Assembly (NCBI RefSeq): GCF_002075285.3
Contig: NZ_CP021983.2
Coordinates: 3,090,001-3,122,000, forward strand
DNA: 32,000 nucleotides
Source of the DNA: Halomicronema hongdechloris C2206
GTDB lineage: Bacteria; Cyanobacteriota; Cyanobacteriia; Phormidesmidales; Phormidesmidaceae
Direction of reading: 5' to 3'
Of this stretch, positions 7,430 to 23,893 are shown one piece after another; position 1 is the first letter of the stretch; each line of letters opens with the position of its first letter. Under the pieces are notes generated by a model. It did no database searches. It had not been told where the DNA came from and saw only the letters and a list, made by a program, of their open reading frames with translations. Position numbers and translations under genes: made by a program.

Positions 7430-7508
7430 TGTTTAGTGAAGAGTGAAGGGTGAAGAGTGACGGGTAGATAGGTGGTGGGGTGTTGGCGGAGCCTGCCCGA
7501 AGGGCTTA

Positions 7509-7640
7509 GGGGTGATGGGGTGATGGGGTGATGGGGTGATGGGGTGATGGGGTGATGGGGTGATGGGGTGATGGGGTGATGGGGGATGGGTGATGGGGTG
7601 ATGGGGTGATGGGGTGATGGGGTGATGGGTGATGGGGTGT
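7509..7640. repeat. G-rich octamer tandem array (GGGGTGAT, ~16 units, two imperfect); STRR-like
   Basis: Direct reading. Near-identical ~30-nt direct repeats (ggggtgt(t)ggcggagcYtgccYgRagggct) flank it at 7486-7510 and 7634-7665. A GAGTTTT x3 heptamer follows at 7663-7683. The 168-aa minus-strand ORF across it (PITPSPHH repeats) is an artefact. Confidence 0.95.
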
Positions 7641-7790
7641 GGCGGAGCTTGCCTGGAGGGCTGAGTTTTGAGTTTTGAGTTTTGAGTGAGTGAATGGTTT
7701 GGCTCCCTGTCAAACGGTGATTGGGCGGGTGAGTCGGTCGATAGCGGATAGAGGGTAGGGGCGCGGTTGCCGGGCCCAAGGCAGAAAACC

Positions 7791-8206
7791 TAACGACCAA
7801 TCGACCAGCCCTGCCGCAGGTCCAGGGCAGCAGCGCGGAAAAGGCAGCGGGCTTCAATTCAAAATTCAAAATTTATTGCTACCGTGCCGATGCGACGCGA
7901 TCCAGCACTGCTAATCGACATGCCCGTCCGCAGGTCCAGGGCAGCGGTTTGCCCTGGTCGTCGGAGTCCGAGGGGAGCGAATCCCCTCGGGCGAGCGCTC
8001 TGGCTTGGAAAACCAAGTGTGGTCTTACCGAGGTTTACCACACCTTGCCAATGCAACGCGATTCACGACGGCTGATCAATAGCCCTTCCGCAGGTCCAGG
8101 CGGCGGCACGCCCGGGTCGTAGGGGTCCGGGGAAAGCGAAATTTCCCCGGGTGAGCACCCCGAGCTACACAATTAAGCATGGCCTTACCGAGGTCTACCG
8201 CCACTA
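7791..8206 (+). repeat. Hairpin-bearing repeat family: partial copy (7791-7850) plus two tandem ~160-nt copies (7888-8048, 8049-8206)
   Basis: The copies share ...ccgcaggtccagg, hairpin 1 (ccagggca/tgccctgg versus ccaggcg/cgcccgg), gtcgt, hairpin 2 (ccgagggga-gcgaa-tcccctcgg versus ccggggaaa-gcga-aatttccccgg), and ggYcttaccgaggtYtacc. A third full copy is inverted at 14150-14362. Confidence 0.8.
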
Positions 8207-14362: not shown

Positions 14363-14824
14363 GTGGGTGGTCTAGATCACGTTGCATCGGTGAGGAGGCG
14401 TCCTGGCATTTGGGGTAGATGTCGTGGGGCCAGGCTTGACGCCCTGGATTCCTGCAGCGGCGGGAATCGTCCATGGCGCTGACGCGCCACACCAAACGAT
14501 GAAAATCGTGTTTACTTTCAGAACAATGACAGAGAACTGTTTTCCTAGGTGAATTAACCGGATTTGATATAACCATAATGGCTGCCGCTATAGAGGAAGC
14601 GCAGCGTCTGAAGAGATAGGCGGGGCCACTTTCACGAGTCGGGCTGACTCCTAGACCGCTGCTGGAACCCAGGCAGCAGTAGCCATGCCATTAAGACAGG
14701 ACATCGTCGAAGGCGATGATCCTTCAGTACTTCAGCAGCCCCCTCGCTTACCGTCTCCATCCCTACTGCTAGCACTTGCAGCGATAACCCTGAGGGATTT
14801 AAACAACCCGTTTGATGCGAAAGA

Positions 14825-15056
14825 GATACCACTATCACCTTTAGTAACATAGATGTTTTTTAACGAGGTGCCGCTAGCTCGTTTAGTAACATGAATGTTT
14901 TTTAACGAGGTACCACTATCACCTTTAGTAACATCAATGTTTCTTAACTAGATACCACTATCACTCGGAGAGATACCACTATCACTTTTAACAACATGGA
15001 TGTTTCTTAACTAGATACCGCTATCACCTTTAGTAACATGGATGTTTCTTTAGTTG
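14825..15056 (+). repeat. 42-43-nt tandem direct-repeat array, 5 full units plus one 21-nt half unit
   Basis: Units start at 14825, 14868, 14910, 14952 (half), 14973 and 15015. The consensus is approximately (g)ataccactatcacctttagtaacatNgatgtttYttaacNag. Units abut with no spacers. Confidence 0.9.
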
Positions 15057-15489: not shown

Positions 15490-15694
15490 TTATCCAGCAG
15501 TTTTGACGGATAACATCCCTAATCTCCAGGATTAACCATAAAATCTGCTCGATAACACCCTGAGACCTCGGACTTATCAATCAAATAGTCCGTTTAATTC
15601 CTTAAAAACCGGGTATTATCCCGTAGATCTGATAGATAATGTGGGGTATAGGGGGTCTTATCCAGCAGATCTGGCACTTAATACATAGTTATGC
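15490..15694 (+). promoter_or_regulatory. attI-like region: four TTATC(C/G)NGYAG sites ending in GTTATGC
   Basis: ttatccagcag at 15490-15500 and 15658-15668, ttatcccgtag at 15616-15626, and an inverted ctgctcgataa at 15545-15555. The GTTATGC core at 15688-15694 has the same sequence as the R' boxes at 17800 and 19887. Confidence 0.5.
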
Positions 15695-15709
15695 CGCGCA
15701 AGCAACGCT

Positions 15710-16138
15710 ATGCCGCCGAATGAGTACAGCCGAAACGACGTGGACGAACCCGTTGAGGTCGTTGCCTACGATCCGGCATGGCCCGAAGCCTTCAAGTGCG
15801 AGCAGGCCGCGCTCCTCCCTCTGCTCAGCCCTGAAGCGGTCGCCGCCGAGCACTTCGGGAGCACGGCGGTTCCGGGCCTCACCGCCAAGCCAGTCGTGGA
15901 CGTGTTGATCGGGCTGCGGCATTATCCGCCATCCGAGCGAGTGCTGGCTACGCTGAGCCAGTCGGGGTACGTGTGCTTGGGAGAGGCGGGCGTGCCCGGG
16001 CGCCACTACTGCCGGAAGCGCGAGGCGGCAAGAGCGACCGGGCGCTTACTTGCGTACTCGGAACGGAAGGCAGACGTCATGGCGTCGTTGCTGGAGCGGG
16101 CGCGAGCTTGGGCGGGTTTGCCCTCAGGCGCGGCATAA
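15710..16138 (+). CDS. GrpB-family protein, probably internally deleted (cassette A)
   Basis: VEVVAYDPAWPEAFKCEQAAL ... EHFGSTAVPGLTAKPVVDVLIG ... GEAGVPGRHY is GrpB-like. It then jumps to a C-terminal-like AYSERKADVMASLLERARAW without the expected central His-containing segment. At 142 aa it is shorter than the roughly 170-190 aa I recall as typical for this family. GC is very high. Confidence 0.55.
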   Translation: MPPNEYSRNDVDEPVEVVAYDPAWPEAFKCEQAALLPLLSPEAVAAEHFGSTAVPGLTAKPVVDVLIGLRHYPPSERVLATLSQSGYVCLGEAGVPGRHYCRKREAARATGRLLAYSERKADVMASLLERARAWAGLPSGAA

Positions 16139-16259
16139 CCAGCGGCTGCACGCGGACGCAGGGCCGGTGCGTCTGGATTACCGCTTCGCTATTTTGCAAG
16201 CTCACTACTTCGGCTGGCCGTCGGCGCACCCTGCGCCGGTGAGCCGCGAGCCGTTAGAC
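16133..16259 (+). other. attC-like site of cassette A (127 nt)
   Basis: R'' GCATAAC (16133-16139, containing the GrpB stop) is the exact complement of the cassette start G|TTATGC. The L stems are gcggctGcac (16142-16151) and gtgagccgc (16239-16247), with one extrahelical G. R' is GTTAGAC at 16253-16259. Confidence 0.7.
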
Positions 16260-16279
16260 GGCATTGAGGACGGTTGCGA

Positions 16280-17236
16280 ATGAAAGTGCTGGCAATCGGC
16301 GCGACGGGCTTCATCGGCCAGAACGTTCTCCCTCTATTGATCGACCGGGGGCATGAAGTTGCCGTGCTGCACCGGGGAGAGACGGTTCAGAGTCCGCCAG
16401 AAGACGTACGCGAGATCCGAGGTAACCGCGATCGGCTAACTGATTGCCGGGCTGAGCTCGAACGATTTGCACCCGATGTGATACTCGACCTGATCCTATA
16501 CACCGAGCAGCAGACGCAACAGATTGTCGATATCTTCCGGGGCACAGGAGGCCGGGTTGTCGCGGTCAGCAGCGGCGATGTCTATCGCAACTACGACGGA
16601 TTTCGCGGGAAAGCCACGGCTCCACCTGATCCGGTGCCGTTATTGGAGAACGCGCCGCTTCGTGAGACGCGGTATCCCTATCGGGGCCACGAAATGAACT
16701 TCGGGTACGCGCAAGACTACGAGAAGATTCTGGTCGAGCAGCTCTTGCTGGGTGAGCCAGCACTTCCCGCAACCGTCCTGCGGCTTCCTGCCGTCTACGG
16801 CCCTGGGGACAGACAGCACCGGCTGCGGCCTTACCTGCAGCGCATGACGGACCGCCAAGCTCAAATCCTCCTTGAGGAGGGACAGGCCAGCTGGCGCTGG
16901 ACGCGAGGCTTCGTCGAAAACGTTGCCGCTGCAGTGGCATTGGCGGTCATGGATCCCCGCGGCGTAGGTCATGTCTACAACGTTGGCGATGAACCCACTT
17001 TCACCGAGCGCGAGTGGGTAGAGCGAATCGCACGCGTGGCCGGTTGGGGAGGCGATGTCGTCGCAGTGCCGCGATCCGAGCTGCCGGATGATCTTCGGCA
17101 GCCGGTGGACTGGCGATTCCATCTGTGGACTGACACTGCGGCGTTGCGCTTTGACCTCGAGTACGTTTCGCCAGTCCCGCTCGACGAGGCCTTGCGGCGC
17201 ACAGTGGAATGGGAAAGGTCGGGGCTTGGGGAGTGA
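16280..17236 (+). CDS. NAD-dependent epimerase/dehydratase (extended SDR) family protein (cassette B)
   Basis: MKVLAIGATGFIGQNVLPLLIDRGHEV Rossmann motif, with SSGDVY and YAQDYEK (YxxxK-like). The start was taken at the ATG 6 nt inside the track ORF. Confidence 0.8.
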   Translation: MKVLAIGATGFIGQNVLPLLIDRGHEVAVLHRGETVQSPPEDVREIRGNRDRLTDCRAELERFAPDVILDLILYTEQQTQQIVDIFRGTGGRVVAVSSGDVYRNYDGFRGKATAPPDPVPLLENAPLRETRYPYRGHEMNFGYAQDYEKILVEQLLLGEPALPATVLRLPAVYGPGDRQHRLRPYLQRMTDRQAQILLEEGQASWRWTRGFVENVAAAVALAVMDPRGVGHVYNVGDEPTFTEREWVERIARVAGWGGDVVAVPRSELPDDLRQPVDWRFHLWTDTAALRFDLEYVSPVPLDEALRRTVEWERSGLGE

Positions 17237-17247
17237 CAGATGATGCG

Positions 17248-17313
17248 GTCTAACAAGCCGATGAAGCTGACGGTCGCCTTCGGCGCCTGCAGCTTATCGG
17301 CGAGCCGTTCGTC
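17248..17313 (+). other. attC-like site of cassette B (66 nt)
   Basis: R'' GTCTAAC is the exact complement of the cassette start G|TTAGAC. The L stems are gccgatGaagctg and cagcttatcggc, with one extrahelical G. R' is GTTCGTC. Confidence 0.7.
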
Positions 17314-17719
17314 GGCAATCGAGAGAGAAATTCTACCAAGGGTCTGACTGGCGGTGGAGCAATCGGCCGTTGTTCAGTTGAGTTCAACTCAGTGATTCCA
17401 ACTCGCGACAGGTTTCAAAAAGTTGTCGTCAGCAGCGTCAGGGTAAGTATTGTTAGCGATTGATTAAGTCTCAACAGTCCCAACAGATCCTGGCGGTTGC
17501 TTGCCTCAGGATCTTAATCGCGAATGGCGGTATCGACGAGTGCGCTCGGTGGGTGTGCGGGGTCTGCCAACTGGCCAAGGTTACGCTTTGTCAACGGTGG
17601 GTCAGTAGCCGAGGTCCCAGTCGATATCGGTGAATGGCCTAGGGTGAGTGGTTTTGAGCGATTGGTCAGTGGGATGAGTTCAGGTTGCGATCGTGGCCGC
17701 CCCCGCCAGAAGGTTGGCC

Positions 17720-17806
17720 CCCGAACCCTGTGTTGGAGCGGTCTGAGCGAAAACTATCGGCTACACTTGAAACGTGCTGCCCAGCCGCACAACTACGCCG
17801 TTATGC
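17720..17806 (+). other. attC-like site of cassette C (87 nt)
   Basis: R'' CCCGAAC ... gcggTctg / cagccgc stems (extrahelical T) ... R' GTTATGC. It resembles the sites at 19808 and 21322 in length and layout. Confidence 0.55.
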
Positions 17807-17833
17807 TGCAAGAAATCATATAAGGAGACAGAC

Positions 17834-18319
17834 ATGGCAAAAATTCCAGTGTTTTATAGCTTTCATTTTGACAATGATGTGATGCGCGTTCAGCAAATAA
17901 GAAACATTGGCATACTCGAAGGAAATTCACCCGCTTCGCCAAATGATTGGGAACGGTTGAAGCGTACAGGTGAGACTGCTGTTGAACGCTGGATTGAAGA
18001 TAATATGAAATACAAGCGCTGCGTTATAGTTTTGATCGGTTCTGATACAGCAAACAGGCCTTGGGTGAAATATGAAATTAAAAAGGCCTGGAATGATCAG
18101 CGAGCGCTCTTGGGTATTTACATCCATAATCTAAAGTGTCCCAGAAATGGTTTTAGTAAAAAAGGAAAAAATCCTTTTGATGAGCTACAGCTTGAGAGCG
18201 GAACAAAGTTGTCTTCCCTCGTTACGTGCTATGACCCTAGCCCATTGAATGCATATGATGAGATTGCTAAAAATGTTGAAAATTGGATCCGCTGGGCCAT
18301 AAAAAATAAGCAAAACTAA
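17834..18319 (+). CDS. TIR-like domain protein of the DUF1863/ThsB type (cassette D, gene 1)
   Basis: 161 aa. An AAGGAG RBS lies 6 nt upstream of the ATG. KIPVFYSFHFDNDVMRVQQIRN ... CVIVLIGSDTANRPWVKYEIKKA ... ALLGIYIHNL matches my recollection of the PF08937 pattern. Confidence 0.75.
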   Translation: MAKIPVFYSFHFDNDVMRVQQIRNIGILEGNSPASPNDWERLKRTGETAVERWIEDNMKYKRCVIVLIGSDTANRPWVKYEIKKAWNDQRALLGIYIHNLKCPRNGFSKKGKNPFDELQLESGTKLSSLVTCYDPSPLNAYDEIAKNVENWIRWAIKNKQN

Positions 18320-18323
18320 GCAC

Positions 18324-18767
18324 ATGGAAAACACTTTCCTTGATATAGACCCCGAATCATCTTCGATCCAAACTCATCTTGGAATTATTCAGAACGTGAT
18401 TCAACGAATGTCCAGTAACAGCTCGGCCTGCAAAGCTTGGTGCGTTAGCTTGGTCGCCGCTGTGTTAGTCCTAGTGGCTGATAAAGGGAAGCCGGAATAT
18501 GCATGGATAGCATTGCTTCCAATTGTAGCATTTGCGGCATTGGATACATATTACTTAGCGCTTGAGAAAGCGTTTCGCAGTTCATACAATGCATTTATCC
18601 GAAAGCTGCACAATAAGCAAATAACAGAACAGGATCTGTATTCGATTTCGCCTGTTGGCAAGATGAGTATTCTTCAAGTAGAAGCGCTAAGGTCTTTCTC
18701 TATATGGGGTTTTTATTTATCCCTTGCAGTTTTGGTATGGGTTACAAAAGCAACAGTGCTGAGTTAA
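18324..18767 (+). CDS. Small three-TM membrane protein of unknown family (cassette D, gene 2)
   Basis: 147 aa. It starts 4 nt after the gene-1 stop. Hydrophobic segments are AWCVSLVAAVLVLVA, AWIALLPIVAFAALDTYYLAL and FSIWGFYLSLAVLVWV. There is a ~35-aa polar N-terminus and a ~45-aa amphipathic loop. Confidence 0.7.
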   Translation: MENTFLDIDPESSSIQTHLGIIQNVIQRMSSNSSACKAWCVSLVAAVLVLVADKGKPEYAWIALLPIVAFAALDTYYLALEKAFRSSYNAFIRKLHNKQITEQDLYSISPVGKMSILQVEALRSFSIWGFYLSLAVLVWVTKATVLS

Positions 18768-18771
18768 ATAA

Positions 18772-18859
18772 ACCTAACATCTACTCGCAAACCAACCGCC
18801 GAGATTTGATCGGTTGTGAAGCAGTGGTTGTCTATAGAGATTGAAGCGGCAGGTTAGGC
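18772..18859 (+). other. attC-like site of cassette D (88 nt)
   Basis: R'' ACCTAAC lies 5 nt after the stop. R' GTTAGGC lies 21 nt before the next ATG. The internal stems are imperfect (atct/agat, caacc/ggttg), so this site is less canonical than the others. Confidence 0.5.
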
Positions 18860-18880
18860 TACCAGAGCACCAATATCAAT

Positions 18881-19762
18881 ATGACTAGCTACCAAAATAA
18901 ATCTGATGACTACGTTTTCATTAGCTACCGAAGAACCGATTTTGACTGGGTGAAAGCATATCTACTACCAAAGCTAAAAGTTTGGAAAGTAAATTATGTA
19001 ATAGATCACCAAGATTTTCTGCCAGGACAACGTATTGCAGGCACCATACGGGATTATATTAGATCATCTCGAAAGGTTATATTCGTATGCACAAGAGAAT
19101 TCCTCGATTCTGAATGGTGTAGAGAAGAGTTAGAAACGGCTCGTGCAGAAGACCCAGGAAGCATTCAGGGAAAATCTATTCCAGTCGTTTTAGATAAGCT
19201 CGGAGTACCTGACCTGCTAAGTGACATAATATGGTGCGATTTATCCAATGACCAAAATGATGCTAATGAATGGAGGAAATTGTGTGTTTCAATAGGTGGC
19301 AGCTGGGACGGCTACAGGGCTATTCAAGATTTGGTTGCAGCTGCAATTGGAGCAGAATACTCCGTATACAAGCAACTGCCAAAGATAAAATTGAAGAAAC
19401 TTGAAAACCATTTCGACGTGAATGGCGGAGCGTATAAAAGGATAAATAATCTCTTAGTTCAACATAGTCAGAAAAAGTGGATAATATCAAACGAACATAA
19501 CCCATCTACCTATCTAATATTAGACATTCAAGTGAAACCTAATGGAGGCGATGGGTACGTTGCCGAGACAAAGGAATATTGGTATCTTAGATGGTATTCA
19601 TTAAGGGATCAAAAATACCGACATATATACAATGAAACAAATCAGCAATTATATAAAGTTCAAAACTTGAACGGATCGTATAAAGTGGTGGACAACATTT
19701 ACCCAGCTCCTAGGAAGAGGTGGTGGCGATCAATATTAAATTACGTATTGAAGTTTAGGTAA
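18881..19762 (+). CDS. TIR domain protein with an uncharacterised ~150-aa C-terminal domain (cassette E)
   Basis: The N-terminus YVFISYRRTDFDWVKAYLLPKL ... RKVIFVCTREFLDSEWCREELETA is a classical TIR (TIR_2-like) with the conserved Glu. I cannot assign the C-terminal part (WYLRWYSLRDQKYRHIYNETNQQLYKV...). Confidence 0.8.
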   Translation: MTSYQNKSDDYVFISYRRTDFDWVKAYLLPKLKVWKVNYVIDHQDFLPGQRIAGTIRDYIRSSRKVIFVCTREFLDSEWCREELETARAEDPGSIQGKSIPVVLDKLGVPDLLSDIIWCDLSNDQNDANEWRKLCVSIGGSWDGYRAIQDLVAAAIGAEYSVYKQLPKIKLKKLENHFDVNGGAYKRINNLLVQHSQKKWIISNEHNPSTYLILDIQVKPNGGDGYVAETKEYWYLRWYSLRDQKYRHIYNETNQQLYKVQNLNGSYKVVDNIYPAPRKRWWRSILNYVLKFR

Positions 19763-19807
19763 ATGACTTAACATAATCTCTGGTGTAGACAATGCCCTGG
19801 CCCTGCC

Positions 19808-19893
19808 GCCTAACCCTACACAGGAGCGGACGGAATTTATAATCCCGGCATCGATGCAAAAATATTGGCCGCCGCTCAACTTCGACGTTATGC
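19808..19893 (+). other. attC-like site of cassette E (86 nt)
   Basis: R'' GCCTAAC is the exact complement of the cassette start G|TTAGGC (18853-18859). The L stems are gagcggAcgg and ccgccgctc, with an extrahelical A. R' is GTTATGC. Confidence 0.7.
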
Positions 19894-20002
19894 GGCTGAA
19901 GCCCTCGGTGAAGGCAATACCTGTAACCCTCGGTCAGCATTAAAGGCTGCTCTTCTACCGCTCTCTCAGTAAGCGGTGTAAGATGGCAATAAGGAGGGCA
20001 AT

Positions 20003-20230
20003 ATGAGTATTCCTATCATCGACGAGGTTGTTGAACAATTGAAGGTCATGCCTCAACCCTTGCAAAGGCAGGTGCTTGAATTCGTTCGATCGCTGGTAAA
20101 AGCGGAAGTCCGAGGTACACCAGGGCATCAATTGTTACGTTTCGCTGGTTCAATTCCCTCTGATGACCTTCAATTAATGCGTGAGGCGATCGAGCAAGAT
20201 TGTGAGCGAGTCGATATTAGTGAGTGGTAG
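20003..20230 (+). CDS. Putative antitoxin paired with the downstream PIN toxin (VapB-like)
   Basis: 75 aa. GGAGG RBS. It overlaps the PIN ORF start. The C-terminus SIPSDDLQLMREAIEQDCERVDISEW is typical of cyanobacterial PIN-associated antitoxins as I recall them. Confidence 0.6.
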   Translation: MSIPIIDEVVEQLKVMPQPLQRQVLEFVRSLVKAEVRGTPGHQLLRFAGSIPSDDLQLMREAIEQDCERVDISEW

Positions 20231-20546
20231 GTTTTTGCTCGATACCAACATCGTTATTGCACTTCTTGCAGATGAGGCGATCGTTAAAGACAATCTTGCT
20301 CAAGTCAGTGAAGTTTTCATTCCAAGCATTGTCATTGGTGAGCTGTGTTATGGAGCCAGAAAGTCAGGACGAGTTGAAGCAAACCTAGCAAGAGTTGATG
20401 AATTAGTGCGATCGCATATCGCCGTAGGTTGGGTTGAGACACGAAACCCAACACTCACAGGCTTTAGCCAGTATAATTGTACGGTGGGCATTATCTTTTC
20501 CGAGATCCTTGCTAACCCATACTCAACCTACAATGCCCACCACTGA
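20220..20546 (+). pseudogene. vapC: VapC-like PIN-domain toxin, truncated after ~62 codons by a repeat insertion
   Basis: From the GTG it reads SGRFLLDTNIVIALL ... IPSIVIGELCYGARKS ... ARVDELVRS. From ~20405 the frame runs into the HIP1 and gttgggtt hairpin repeat (HIAVGWVETRNPT). The distal PIN acidic residues are missing. Confidence 0.65.
20405..20469. repeat. ~65-nt repeat core (HIP1 plus gttgggttgagRcacgaaacccaac hairpin), copy 1
   Basis: Near-identical to 22048-22111. Both copies are followed by scattered tgcccacc motifs, suggesting a MITE-like element. Confidence 0.8.
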
Positions 20547-20638
20547 AAAAAGGTGGGCAAACAAAGCTTAGAGACGATAGCAAGGGGTGTCTATTATGGT
20601 TTTGCCCACCCTACTTCACTACTTCACTACTGACCGCT

Positions 20639-20713
20639 GGTGGCACAGATGACATCGACAACATACAGCCCCTTTGTTATCAGTGCAATTTATCCAAGTT
20701 CAATGGTCGTTGA
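20639..20713 (+). pseudogene. HNH endonuclease C-terminal remnant
   Basis: My translation gives GGTDDIDNIQPLCYQCNLSKFNGR*, an HNH NxxPLCxxCNxxK motif with no upstream ORF. Confidence 0.6.
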
Positions 20714-20721
20714 AAAGAACA

Positions 20722-21054
20722 CTAATGAAGTTCCAGACAGTGCAACTCGGGATTGTTCAAGAGTTCTTGAATTGCTGTTGCTCCGGAACGAATTAATGCT
20801 TCGACTTGATTAGTTGGTGCATTGCCACATCGCAACCAAACAACTTTGGGTGGAGAGCCATAAAGCCGACTTCTTTCAGAGAAATCTGCATCTTGCGTCA
20901 CTATGCAAAAGTCATTGAGCTTAGCAAAATCCCAGATTTCAGTATCTGTTTTCTCAGCTAGGTCATGGAATTGAACGTGGCTGGATTCAGGAAAAATATC
21001 AGCCAACCGATTAATCAGCTTACGGCTAAGGTTTTGGTCAAACAGCAGCTTCAA
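20722..21054 (-). CDS. DUF5615 (Mut7-C/PIN-like) putative toxin
   Basis: MKLLFDQNLSRKLINRL ... IVTQDADF pattern. It overlaps the upstream DUF433 gene by 4 nt. Confidence 0.65.
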   Translation of the reverse strand: MKLLFDQNLSRKLINRLADIFPESSHVQFHDLAEKTDTEIWDFAKLNDFCIVTQDADFSERSRLYGSPPKVVWLRCGNAPTNQVEALIRSGATAIQELLNNPELHCLELH

Positions 21055-21281
21055 GCAGCACTCACCGATGCAACTAAACGATGTTCGCGATCAGCTGCGA
21101 ACTCTAAACAAGCCCTAATGTCAGTTTCCGTTAATTCTGGAAAGTCGTCAATGATTTCAGCGGTAGACATACCAGCCGCTAACCAGCCCAAGACATCGTA
21201 GACCGTAATCCGCATCCGGCGGATGCATGGCTTGCCACCACGCTTATCAGGCTCAATCGTAATGATGTCGCGATAGCTCAT
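21051..21281 (-). CDS. DUF433 putative antitoxin
   Basis: IITIEPDKRGGKPCIRRMRITVYDVLGWLAAGMSTAEIIDDFPELTETDIRACLEFA is the DUF433 signature. The start may instead be 21305. Confidence 0.7.
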   Translation of the reverse strand: MSYRDIITIEPDKRGGKPCIRRMRITVYDVLGWLAAGMSTAEIIDDFPELTETDIRACLEFAADREHRLVASVSAA

Positions 21282-21321
21282 AATACGGACAGGCTGCTTG
21301 TGCATACCTAAGTCTAAAGCA

Positions 21322-21408
21322 GGCTAACACCTCGCTGCAACGGACGGCGATTAGTTGGTCGATCTGAGGCAAGAGGTTGTCTGCCGCCGTTGAGCTTCAC
21401 CGTTATAC
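21322..21408 (+). other. attC-like site of cassette F (87 nt)
   Basis: R'' GGCTAAC ... caacggAcggc / gccgccgttg stems, with an extrahelical A. The stems covary with the 19808 site (gagcgg to caacgg, ccgctc to ccgttg). R' is GTTATAC. Confidence 0.65.
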
Positions 21409-23280: not shown

Positions 23281-23893
23281 TTATGAGAATCGACCGTACT
23301 GATGCATCTTTGGAAAATCAAACACATCAAGCTTGAAAAACTGCTCAAATAGCGCCTTGAGGGCTGTAAAACAAGGCTTCAGTCCGGCTAACGACCGTAG
23401 CCATGTCTTCGCCTGCAACCAGACATCCTCAATCGGATTCTGACTCGGGTCGTTGGGCGCAAAGCGGACACAGTGAATGTGCCACTGGGCTTCTGGCAAG
23501 CCCTGATTGACCTCTTTGAGAAAAGCTTGTAGGTCTTTGGAACGATGGTAGCTGGCTCCATCCCACACCACGAGTAATCGTTGACCAGCAAACTGCTGCT
23601 GCAAAAACTTGAGATAAGCAATGGTGCACGTCGTGTTGCCTGCTGGATGGGCGGCTAGCAACACCCGCTTGCTCAGCAAGTCAAGGGCGCCATAGTAAGT
23701 CTCACGCCTTCGGCTTCATAGGCGAGTTTCCAGTTACTGATAGAGCCCATCGAGACGTCCAAGATGACCACAATCGCTTCATAGCCCCCTGATACAACAG
23801 CTTGACGGCCAGCGCTTGCTTCACCTGTCGCCCGTCTCTCTCTTTACTGATGAACGCTTTGAGTTCTTCTATCTCAGCCGTTGTGCTTTGCTC
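23281..23893 (-). pseudogene. IS630-family transposase remnant (frameshifted HTH fragment joined to the DDE C-terminal half)
   Basis: The C-terminal ORF reads LLVVWDGASYHRSKDL ... FAPNDPSQNPIEDVWLQAK (DDE_3-like). An in-frame stop sits at 23716-23718. Upstream fragments EIEELKAFISKERDGRQVKQALAVKLLYQG and YEAIVVILDVSMGSISNWKLAYEAEGV lie in two different frames. Confidence 0.75.

Follow-up and report, generated by a model that had tools for sequence, protein, structure and literature searches.

TIR-X: a TIR protein with a predicted NTF2-like C-terminal domain, carried on an integron-type cassette in a cyanobacterium

In a 32-kb stretch (the window; NZ_CP021983.2, positions 3,090,001 to 3,122,000) of the chromosome of Halomicronema hongdechloris C2206, a filamentous cyanobacterium, an intact integron-type cassette carries a single gene for a 293-aa protein, TIR-X, in which a classical N-terminal TIR domain is fused to a C-terminal domain, X, whose predicted fold is that of an NTF2-like cone. 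The analyses described here support the identification of the N-terminus as a TIR, the NTF2-like fold of X and its modular use, the cassette nature of the unit and the action of purifying selection on the gene. The reading we favour, which rests on context and analogy and which we place just short of an even chance, is that TIR-X is a self-contained, single-protein TIR NADase defence module gated by X. In this scenario, the TIR would be the effector, with E83 as its catalytic glutamate, and X would be a control module that either recognises a trigger through a pocket of conserved polar residues or keeps the protein in an oligomer of fixed make-up. If the analogy is with ARC6/PARC6, the trigger would be a peptide tail; if it is with SnoaL/KSI-type NTF2 proteins, a small molecule. 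The oligomer might be an assembly resembling the CaMKII hub. Once bound, the trigger would allow the TIRs to assemble with one another, and the assembled TIRs would deplete NAD+ or produce a signal, so that the infected cell stops growing. The defence role, the NADase activity, the ligand of X and this order of events are what we infer by analogy. The gene itself (18881-19762, + strand; all positions are those of the window) was read by translation of the open reading frame (ORF), which gives the sequence quoted in an earlier, sequence-only reading of this DNA and is 100% identical to a protein already deposited for the same strain (XM38_029570, ASC72003.1, WP_080807859.1). The database annotation of XM38_029570 and WP_080807859.1 is only 'TIR domain-containing protein' or hypothetical.

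The sequence-only reading had taken the N-terminal half for a canonical TIR with a conserved glutamate, which proved correct. Pfam TIR_2 matches residues 12-134 (18914-19282, +) with an E-value of 4.8e-23 (82.4 bits against a cut-off of 28), Pfam TIR matches with an E-value of 1e-14 (55.2 bits against a cut-off of 21.3), and the best hits of this half in a sequence search of the PDB are the TIRs of animal TLRs (TLR15/2 at E 3.8e-13, TLR6/TLR1 at ~1e-11). The alignments with the TLRs span FISY, the BB loop (D/N)F(L/V/K)PG, which is DFLPG in TIR-X, and SEWCxxEL. E83, the glutamate of WCxxEL (codon 19127-19129, +, read from the sequence), and P48, the proline of the BB-loop FLPG, align with the TLR TIRs and are invariant across the five close homologs of alignment A8. 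The WCxxEL glutamate also persists in another, divergent flavour of TIR that is joined to domain X, and we take the position of this glutamate to be that of the catalytic glutamate of NADase TIRs, as known from SARM1 and plant TIRs. Models of ThsB, SAVED-TIR, bSEFIR, the Thoeris type III protein ThcB4 and retron-TIR (PADLOC/NCBIfam) match weakly and only in the TIR part. Membership of Thoeris itself was ruled out: with 15.5 bits, the Pfam ThsB_TIR match falls short of the cut-off (21.2), the PADLOC ThsB matches over residues 10-90 do not go beyond E 1e-4 to 2e-6, and no ThsA, whether SIR2-SLOG or TM-Macro, is present in the window.

Domain X (residues ~146-277; 19316-19711, +; delimited by profile search, AlphaFold2 and Foldseek) had been said to match nothing recognisable, and at the sequence level this holds. 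Nothing in Pfam is significant, the best match being DUF3048_C with an E-value of 0.0096, which is under the cut-off; profile searches of NCBIfam and PDB sequences gave no match, and none of the PADLOC v2 models covers the domain. A profile of the C-terminal domain (A1), run over 1.84 billion representatives of clusters at 50% identity, retrieved 400 of them at E<=1e-3, of which 302 also pass E<=1e-10, and X is nearly always C-terminal in them; the distinct domain that had been postulated is indeed a conserved one. Structure prediction followed by a Foldseek search, the check that had been proposed for this region, gave it a fold. The AlphaFold2 model, built on a 91-sequence alignment, has a predicted local distance difference test (pLDDT) score of 93.9; it starts with three helices, continues with four long strands that run antiparallel and closes with one more helix. 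Every one of its 32 matches in the PDB at E<=1e-3 is NTF2-like. At the top are the intermembrane-space domains of ARC6/PARC6 (TMt 0.71 for 5had and 0.70 for 5d9r; probability 1.0), next come CaMKII hub domains (TM 0.55-0.6, probability 1.0), and these are followed by ketosteroid-isomerase/SnoaL-like proteins (KSI-like folds, likewise at probability 1.0), the bile-acid dehydratase BaiE and Tim44. Pfam ARC6-like_IMS (PF13355) matches one of the 149 family members scanned (E 2.6e-5) and neither the window protein nor the other 148. On these grounds we take X to be an NTF2-like cone, and it defines a large family that Pfam does not yet model.

The best structural match, the ARC6/PARC6 intermembrane-space domain (ARC6-like_IMS, formerly DUF4101; 5had, 5d9r and 5u9o, TM 0.57-0.71), holds the C-terminal peptide of PDV2/PDV1 in the pocket of its cone, as the titles of the PDB entries record and as is well established. 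X differs in that it is cytoplasmic, fused to a TIR, only 12-14% identical, has no link to division and bears a signature of its own (NPS, EYWYLRW, YxExNxQxY), which in full reads E159, Y163, P167, N207-P208-S209, E232-x-W-x-L-x-W238 and Y250-x-E-x-N-x-Q-x-Y258. N207-P208-S209 and E232 are invariant, and E159, N254, Q256, Y163, W234, W238, Y250 and Y258 are highly conserved. The conserved residues alternate along strands 2 and 3, so that they should lie on the same face of the sheet, and this conserved polar face is a putative binding or catalytic pocket rather than part of the core; this alternation of invariant polar residues on neighbouring strands is one of the points in favour of X as a pocket-bearing control module. 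After X, the protein ends in a predicted basic amphipathic helix, RKRWWRSILNYVLKFR (19715-19759, +; helix 142-152 of the X model, pLDDT 73-87), a possible membrane- or partner-binding element that has comparable counterparts in P0002-P0005, P0030 and P0078. A search of a viral structure library returned weak NTF2 matches from giant viruses only, a pattern scan found no relatives of X in IMG/VR, and the whole TIR-X protein had no match by tblastn in plasmid and phage collections.

The modularity of X is apparent from what it is fused to. The full-length TIR-X relatives retrieved by a first homolog search number four (P0001-P0004, 91-51% identity), to which a single fragment is added; a word-indexed profile search with alignment A3 retrieved 4 proteins, and a genome scan with the A1 profile 18 loci, mostly of the types called A and B below. 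The first search also brought up a sister family (P0007-P0021), in which the TLR-like TIR (~55% identity) is shared but followed by a different, uncharacterised C-terminal domain of ~200 aa, and a scan of metagenomes for more TIR-X loci found only this family; that the same TIR clade occurs with another C-terminal domain fits the swapping of sensor and effector modules. One sister-family gene, at locus L034 (1528-2601), comes after an FRG-domain gene. P0022-P0024 (279 aa), also from the first search, have only domain X in common with TIR-X and carry another N-terminus. Clustering the N-terminal regions of 133 X proteins gave 53 of type A, 47 of type B, 12 TIRs and nine of type D, the others being singletons. 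Type A (~127 aa) is modelled by AlphaFold with a pLDDT of 94.8 and has no fold match (best E 0.84) and no sequence match in the PDB. Type B (~116 aa, with a motif 'ISxSTLERIFKYGY...LCxFLGY') looks helix-turn-helix (HTH)-like and yielded only a sub-threshold hint of an XRE-like HTH; compared by hhalign, the two types are unrelated. In P0030, the N-terminal partner is a Trans_reg_C winged helix (Pfam). Seven members, P0106 and P0172 among them, carry at their C-terminus the Pfam effector-associated domain EAD11, in TIR-X-EAD11 (P0147), type D-X-EAD11 and X-EAD11 arrangements.

The genes around X point in several directions. Type A-X genes overlap or abut a gene for an MFS/BT1 transporter in two unrelated lineages (loci L001-L004 and L018), and a type B gene has redox and sulfur genes as neighbours, a housekeeping setting. 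X is therefore not specific to defence, most X proteins (types A and B) being found outside recognisable defence contexts; it is a constant module with swapped outputs, only a minority of which (TIR, EAD11) point to immunity. TIR-X itself tends to have defence-type genes in its vicinity: a TIR_2 fragment (L007), an Mrr-type endonuclease (L019) and a TIR of the CAP12/Pycsar type (L040). At a further locus (L033, 5001-5958), a TIR-X homolog is split over two ORFs (P0006, 178 aa, and P0040, 156 aa), probably by a frameshift, and sits among small ORFs with an rve transposase.

The TIR-X gene occupies an integron-type cassette of its own (18854-19887, +), which begins with TTAGGC, ends on the G of the R' site that follows it and was delimited by complementarity to its own R'' and by the end of homology with a related contig (L006). 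The G at 18853 is followed by TTAGGC at 18854-18859, the R'' GCCTAAC lies at 19808-19814, and the next R', GTTATGC, has its G at 19887. TTAGGC with the preceding G complements the R'' GCCTAAC of the same cassette, a match that the sequence-only reading had noticed and that is exact. This rule (TTRRRY plus G) is obeyed exactly in three of six cassettes (TIR-X and those starting at 15689 and 16254), and in 5/7 positions in the others. The attC site of the cassette (19808-19893, +) consists of the R'' (19808-19814), an L stem GAGCGG(A)CGG / CCGCCGCTC with one bulged base, and the R' (19887-19893), and folds into an R stem and an L stem. That of the preceding cassette (18772-18859, +) runs from R'' ACCTAAC to R' GTTAGGC, its last six bases being the first six of the TIR-X cassette. 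Over four related attC sites, the L stem is 94% paired, shows compensatory changes in three of its nine pairs and keeps the bulged base constant, as against 27-50% pairing in slid control alignments; when sequences are folded singly, the z-scores are weak (-1.1 to -1.5).

Comparison with other genomes lends these borders further weight. L006 encodes a TIR-X protein that is 91% identical, and the contig, 94% identical at the DNA level, aligns with the window from 17800, in an R', to the G at 19887 and is unrelated outside. That these breakpoints coincide with the predicted crossover points between G and TT supports the notion of real cassettes, although in L006 the right-hand crossover G is followed by GAATGG (~2440-2470) instead of TTRRRY, a junction that is perhaps atypical or else, given its place at the end of the contig, an artefact of assembly. 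The earlier reading had also argued that TIR-X is a mobile unit separate from its neighbours, and two other homologs bear this out: P0004 (51% identity) stands alone between GCCTAAC...GTTAGGC and a downstream attC, with a different upstream cassette, and contigs of 1.4 kb encoding P0003 end on both sides within the same attC. P0002 (73% identity) is found outside any array and adjoins a topoisomerase gene. The gene is moreover maintained. Between the window and L006, the ratio of nonsynonymous to synonymous substitution rates (dN/dS) is 0.50 for TIR-X, 0.32 for the ThsB-like gene of the neighbouring cassette and 0.16 for the membrane-protein gene next to that, values that imply purifying selection on all three. 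A pseudogene or decaying cargo was ruled out, the ORF being intact with a dN/dS of 0.5. No promoter or terminator above chance was found by scanning 17300-20100, and Rfam and tRNA scans of the window gave no match.

Part of the case for defence is that TIR-X is found alone between attC sites elsewhere and near the Mrr-type endonuclease and the CAP12/Pycsar-type TIR, integron cassettes being an established reservoir of small defence systems. TIR-X resembles the TIR-STING and TIR-SAVED effectors of the cyclic-oligonucleotide-based anti-phage system CBASS and the TIR effectors of Pycsar, as well as ThsB and bSEFIR, in having a TIR with the conserved glutamate and in being a small gene in mobile or defence contexts, and it shares with the ligand-gated TIR effectors the plan of an N-terminal TIR followed by one control domain. 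It differs from these in that its control domain is an NTF2-like cone, in place of STING, SAVED, CARF or a cNMP-binding domain, and in that it has no cyclase or ThsA partner; it belongs to none of their families. Several considerations weigh against the defence reading. TIR-X is rare, with only ~12 representatives; types A and B, which make up ~100 of the ~133 N-terminal regions, are outside recognisable defence contexts; and domain X falls outside the PADLOC models. In addition, the closest solved relatives by sequence are the TIRs of TLRs. These are scaffolds that have the same glutamate, yet are no NADases, so that the conserved glutamate is necessary for NADase activity and insufficient for it. 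The TIR-X-EAD11 protein is double-edged: it ties the unit to conflict systems, yet X need not be the primary phage sensor, since in such an arrangement a separate core would be expected to do the sensing.

A first alternative, which is unlikely in our estimate, is that TIR-X serves as an accessory TIR of the neighbouring system. Just upstream lies a two-gene cassette (17801-18853, +) encoding a ThsB-like TIR of 161 aa (17834-18319), matched in PADLOC by ThsB (E 2.8e-70) and PDC-M50B (E 4.6e-60), and a 147-aa membrane protein (18324-18767) matched by PDC-M50A (E 1.6e-28). In this alternative, X would sense another trigger, a nucleotide signal made by TIR-X would activate the PDC-M50A-like membrane protein and the functional unit would be a block of two cassettes; the extra ThsB genes of Thoeris loci provide a model. 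The block 17801-19887 (ThsB-like TIR, membrane protein and TIR-X) has indeed stayed intact in L006, at 94% nucleotide identity and despite different outer flanks, other TIR genes stand beside TIR-X in L007 and L040, and the TIR of TIR-X matches ThsB and Thoeris type III models weakly. However, the internal attC is intact and differs between the two copies by a compensatory C>T / G>A pair (ACCTAAC/GTTAGGC in the window, ACTTAAC/GTTAAGC in L006), from which it follows that the two cassettes are separable, and the divergence of window and L006 is too recent for their shared adjacency to count for much. Moreover, TIR-X occurs without the PDC-M50 pair in five contexts (L007, L008, L019, L038 and L040), in one of which (L008) the upstream membrane protein is unrelated to PDC-M50A. 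The 147-aa protein has no recognisable ligand-binding, Macro or SLOG domain. The two-gene cassette also resembles published cassettes of a ThsB homolog with a non-ThsA partner (Tragantia, brc22/23), and such integron cassettes are protective on their own (bioRxiv 10.1101/2024.07.02.601719). The cooperation between the two cassettes that had been suggested therefore keeps, as the one positive sign of linkage, the block travelling together in L006 and loses ground to the TIR-X genes that lack the pair.

A second alternative, likewise doubtful, concerns what X does. X might be mainly an oligomerisation hub, in the manner of the CaMKII hub or the SAM domains of SARM1, or a peptide-docking domain, and sense nothing; TIR-X would then be an effector or a scaffold switched on by its expression level or recruited by another system encoded elsewhere in the genome, for which the C-terminal EAD11 of some relatives or the basic amphipathic tail of TIR-X might provide the route. 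The CaMKII hub is among the best fold matches, and the closest solved relatives of the TIR are scaffolding TIRs. SARM1 is an architectural analogy only, since it oligomerises through SAM domains and not through an NTF2-like domain, and in the analogy with the CaMKII hub, X would form an oligomer that keeps the catalytic domains in place and controls their contact. The TIR-X-EAD11 and X-EAD11 architectures fit as well, EADs being adaptors that link effectors and signalling domains to the cores of conflict systems through homotypic contacts (PMC7159879). Against this, Pfam finds no EAD on the window protein, and the neighbourhoods of P0147 and P0106 yielded no core with an EAD11. The invariant polar residues of X suggest a site for binding or catalysis more than an interface, and the ARC6-type fold fits better than the hub (TM 0.70 versus 0.55-0.6).

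The least probable of the alternatives, and one we consider distinctly unlikely, is that TIR-X is non-immune, X being the ligand-binding domain of one-component regulators and the TIR fusion a metabolic or regulatory NAD+-linked protein or functionless cargo: most X proteins do have HTH-like or unassigned N-terminal domains and lie among housekeeping genes or transporters, and the array also holds non-defence cassettes (GrpB, epimerase), but the bacterial TIR proteins characterised to date are, to our knowledge, overwhelmingly defence or virulence factors, and defence and toxin-antitoxin neighbours, the EAD11 link and the purifying selection on TIR-X all run counter to it.

TIR proteins play a central part in the immunity of bacteria, plants and animals, and the systems differ in how the TIR is switched on. 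The pairing of a TLR-like TIR with an NTF2-like cone brings in a control domain that is missing from current defence catalogues, has no Pfam model and occurs in at least 400 protein clusters. Searches of the literature on TIR with NTF2-like and anti-phage, on PDC-M50, on DUF4101 and on Halomicronema with integron returned nothing relevant, and the literature searched holds no report or test of the TIR-X family and no link between TIR and NTF2-like domains in phage defence. If TIR-X protects against phage, a compact sensor-effector design of 293 aa would be added to those known, and there would be a handle on the whole X family, including the HTH-X and type A-X proteins. A bolder extension, to which we give little credence for now, is that X is a widespread NTF2-like sensor of one conserved ligand or peptide, wired to DNA-binding outputs in ordinary regulators and to TIR or EAD11 in immune proteins, and that TIR-X would be a one-protein alarm in which the cone senses an infection-associated metabolite or peptide and switches on the TIR NADase. 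If this were true, the NTF2/TIR pairing would be one undescribed for TIR immunity, and the type A partner would be one without a solved structural relative.

The array in which TIR-X is embedded has attC-like sites in a single orientation at 16133-16259, 17248-17314, 17720-17806, 18772-18859, 19808-19893 and 21322-21408. On the left, it holds a GrpB cassette (15689-16253), an NAD-dependent epimerase cassette (16254-17308) and a cassette without an ORF (17309-17800). On the right, a 1.5-kb toxin-antitoxin unit extends up to the attC at 21322-21408 and comprises a VapBC-like pair (20003-20546) and a DUF433/DUF5615 pair (20722-21305, -). ORFs of at least 100 aa in the window contain no integrase domain, the rest of the genome not having been searched, and within these 32 kb the array (15688-21408) is for that reason comparable to a cluster of attC sites lacking integron-integrases (CALIN). 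TIR-X is much like the phage-defence cassettes of mobile integrons (the bacteriophage-resistance integron cassettes, BRiCs) and of sedentary chromosomal integrons, in that it is a short, promoterless, one-gene cassette bounded by attC sites in an array with toxin-antitoxin and ThsB-homolog plus partner cassettes; it differs in its cyanobacterial host and in the lack of an integrase in the window. The idea of integron cassettes as a library of defence systems would thereby be extended to a cyanobacterial array without an integrase.

The neighbours of the surrounding island are tmk, holB and an ABC transporter at one end and gcvT/gcvP at the opposite end. The low GC content that had been noted for the cassette region is real, at ~0.40 against ~0.60 in the rest of the window. 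Overrepresentation of the HIP1 octamer is typical of cyanobacteria, and GCGATCGC has 17 copies in the window where 0.8 would be expected, none of which lies between 13.3 and 20.4 kb and only one of which, at 20408, lies within the island. Such absence of HIP1 from the low-GC island argues that it is acquired DNA, foreign to the chromosome. Just to the left of the first cassette boundary, at 14823-15050, a 42-bp unit (GAGATACCACTATCACCTTTAACAACATGGATGTTTCTTAACT-like) is repeated in tandem about five times; these repeats might be the remnant of an attI or regulatory region, or iterons. A DDE_3 transposase fragment of 132 aa (23281-23679, -) lies where the island ends on the right, ahead of gcvT. 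Finally, the GC skew spikes to +0.39 at 7501-8000, in or beside the holB region.

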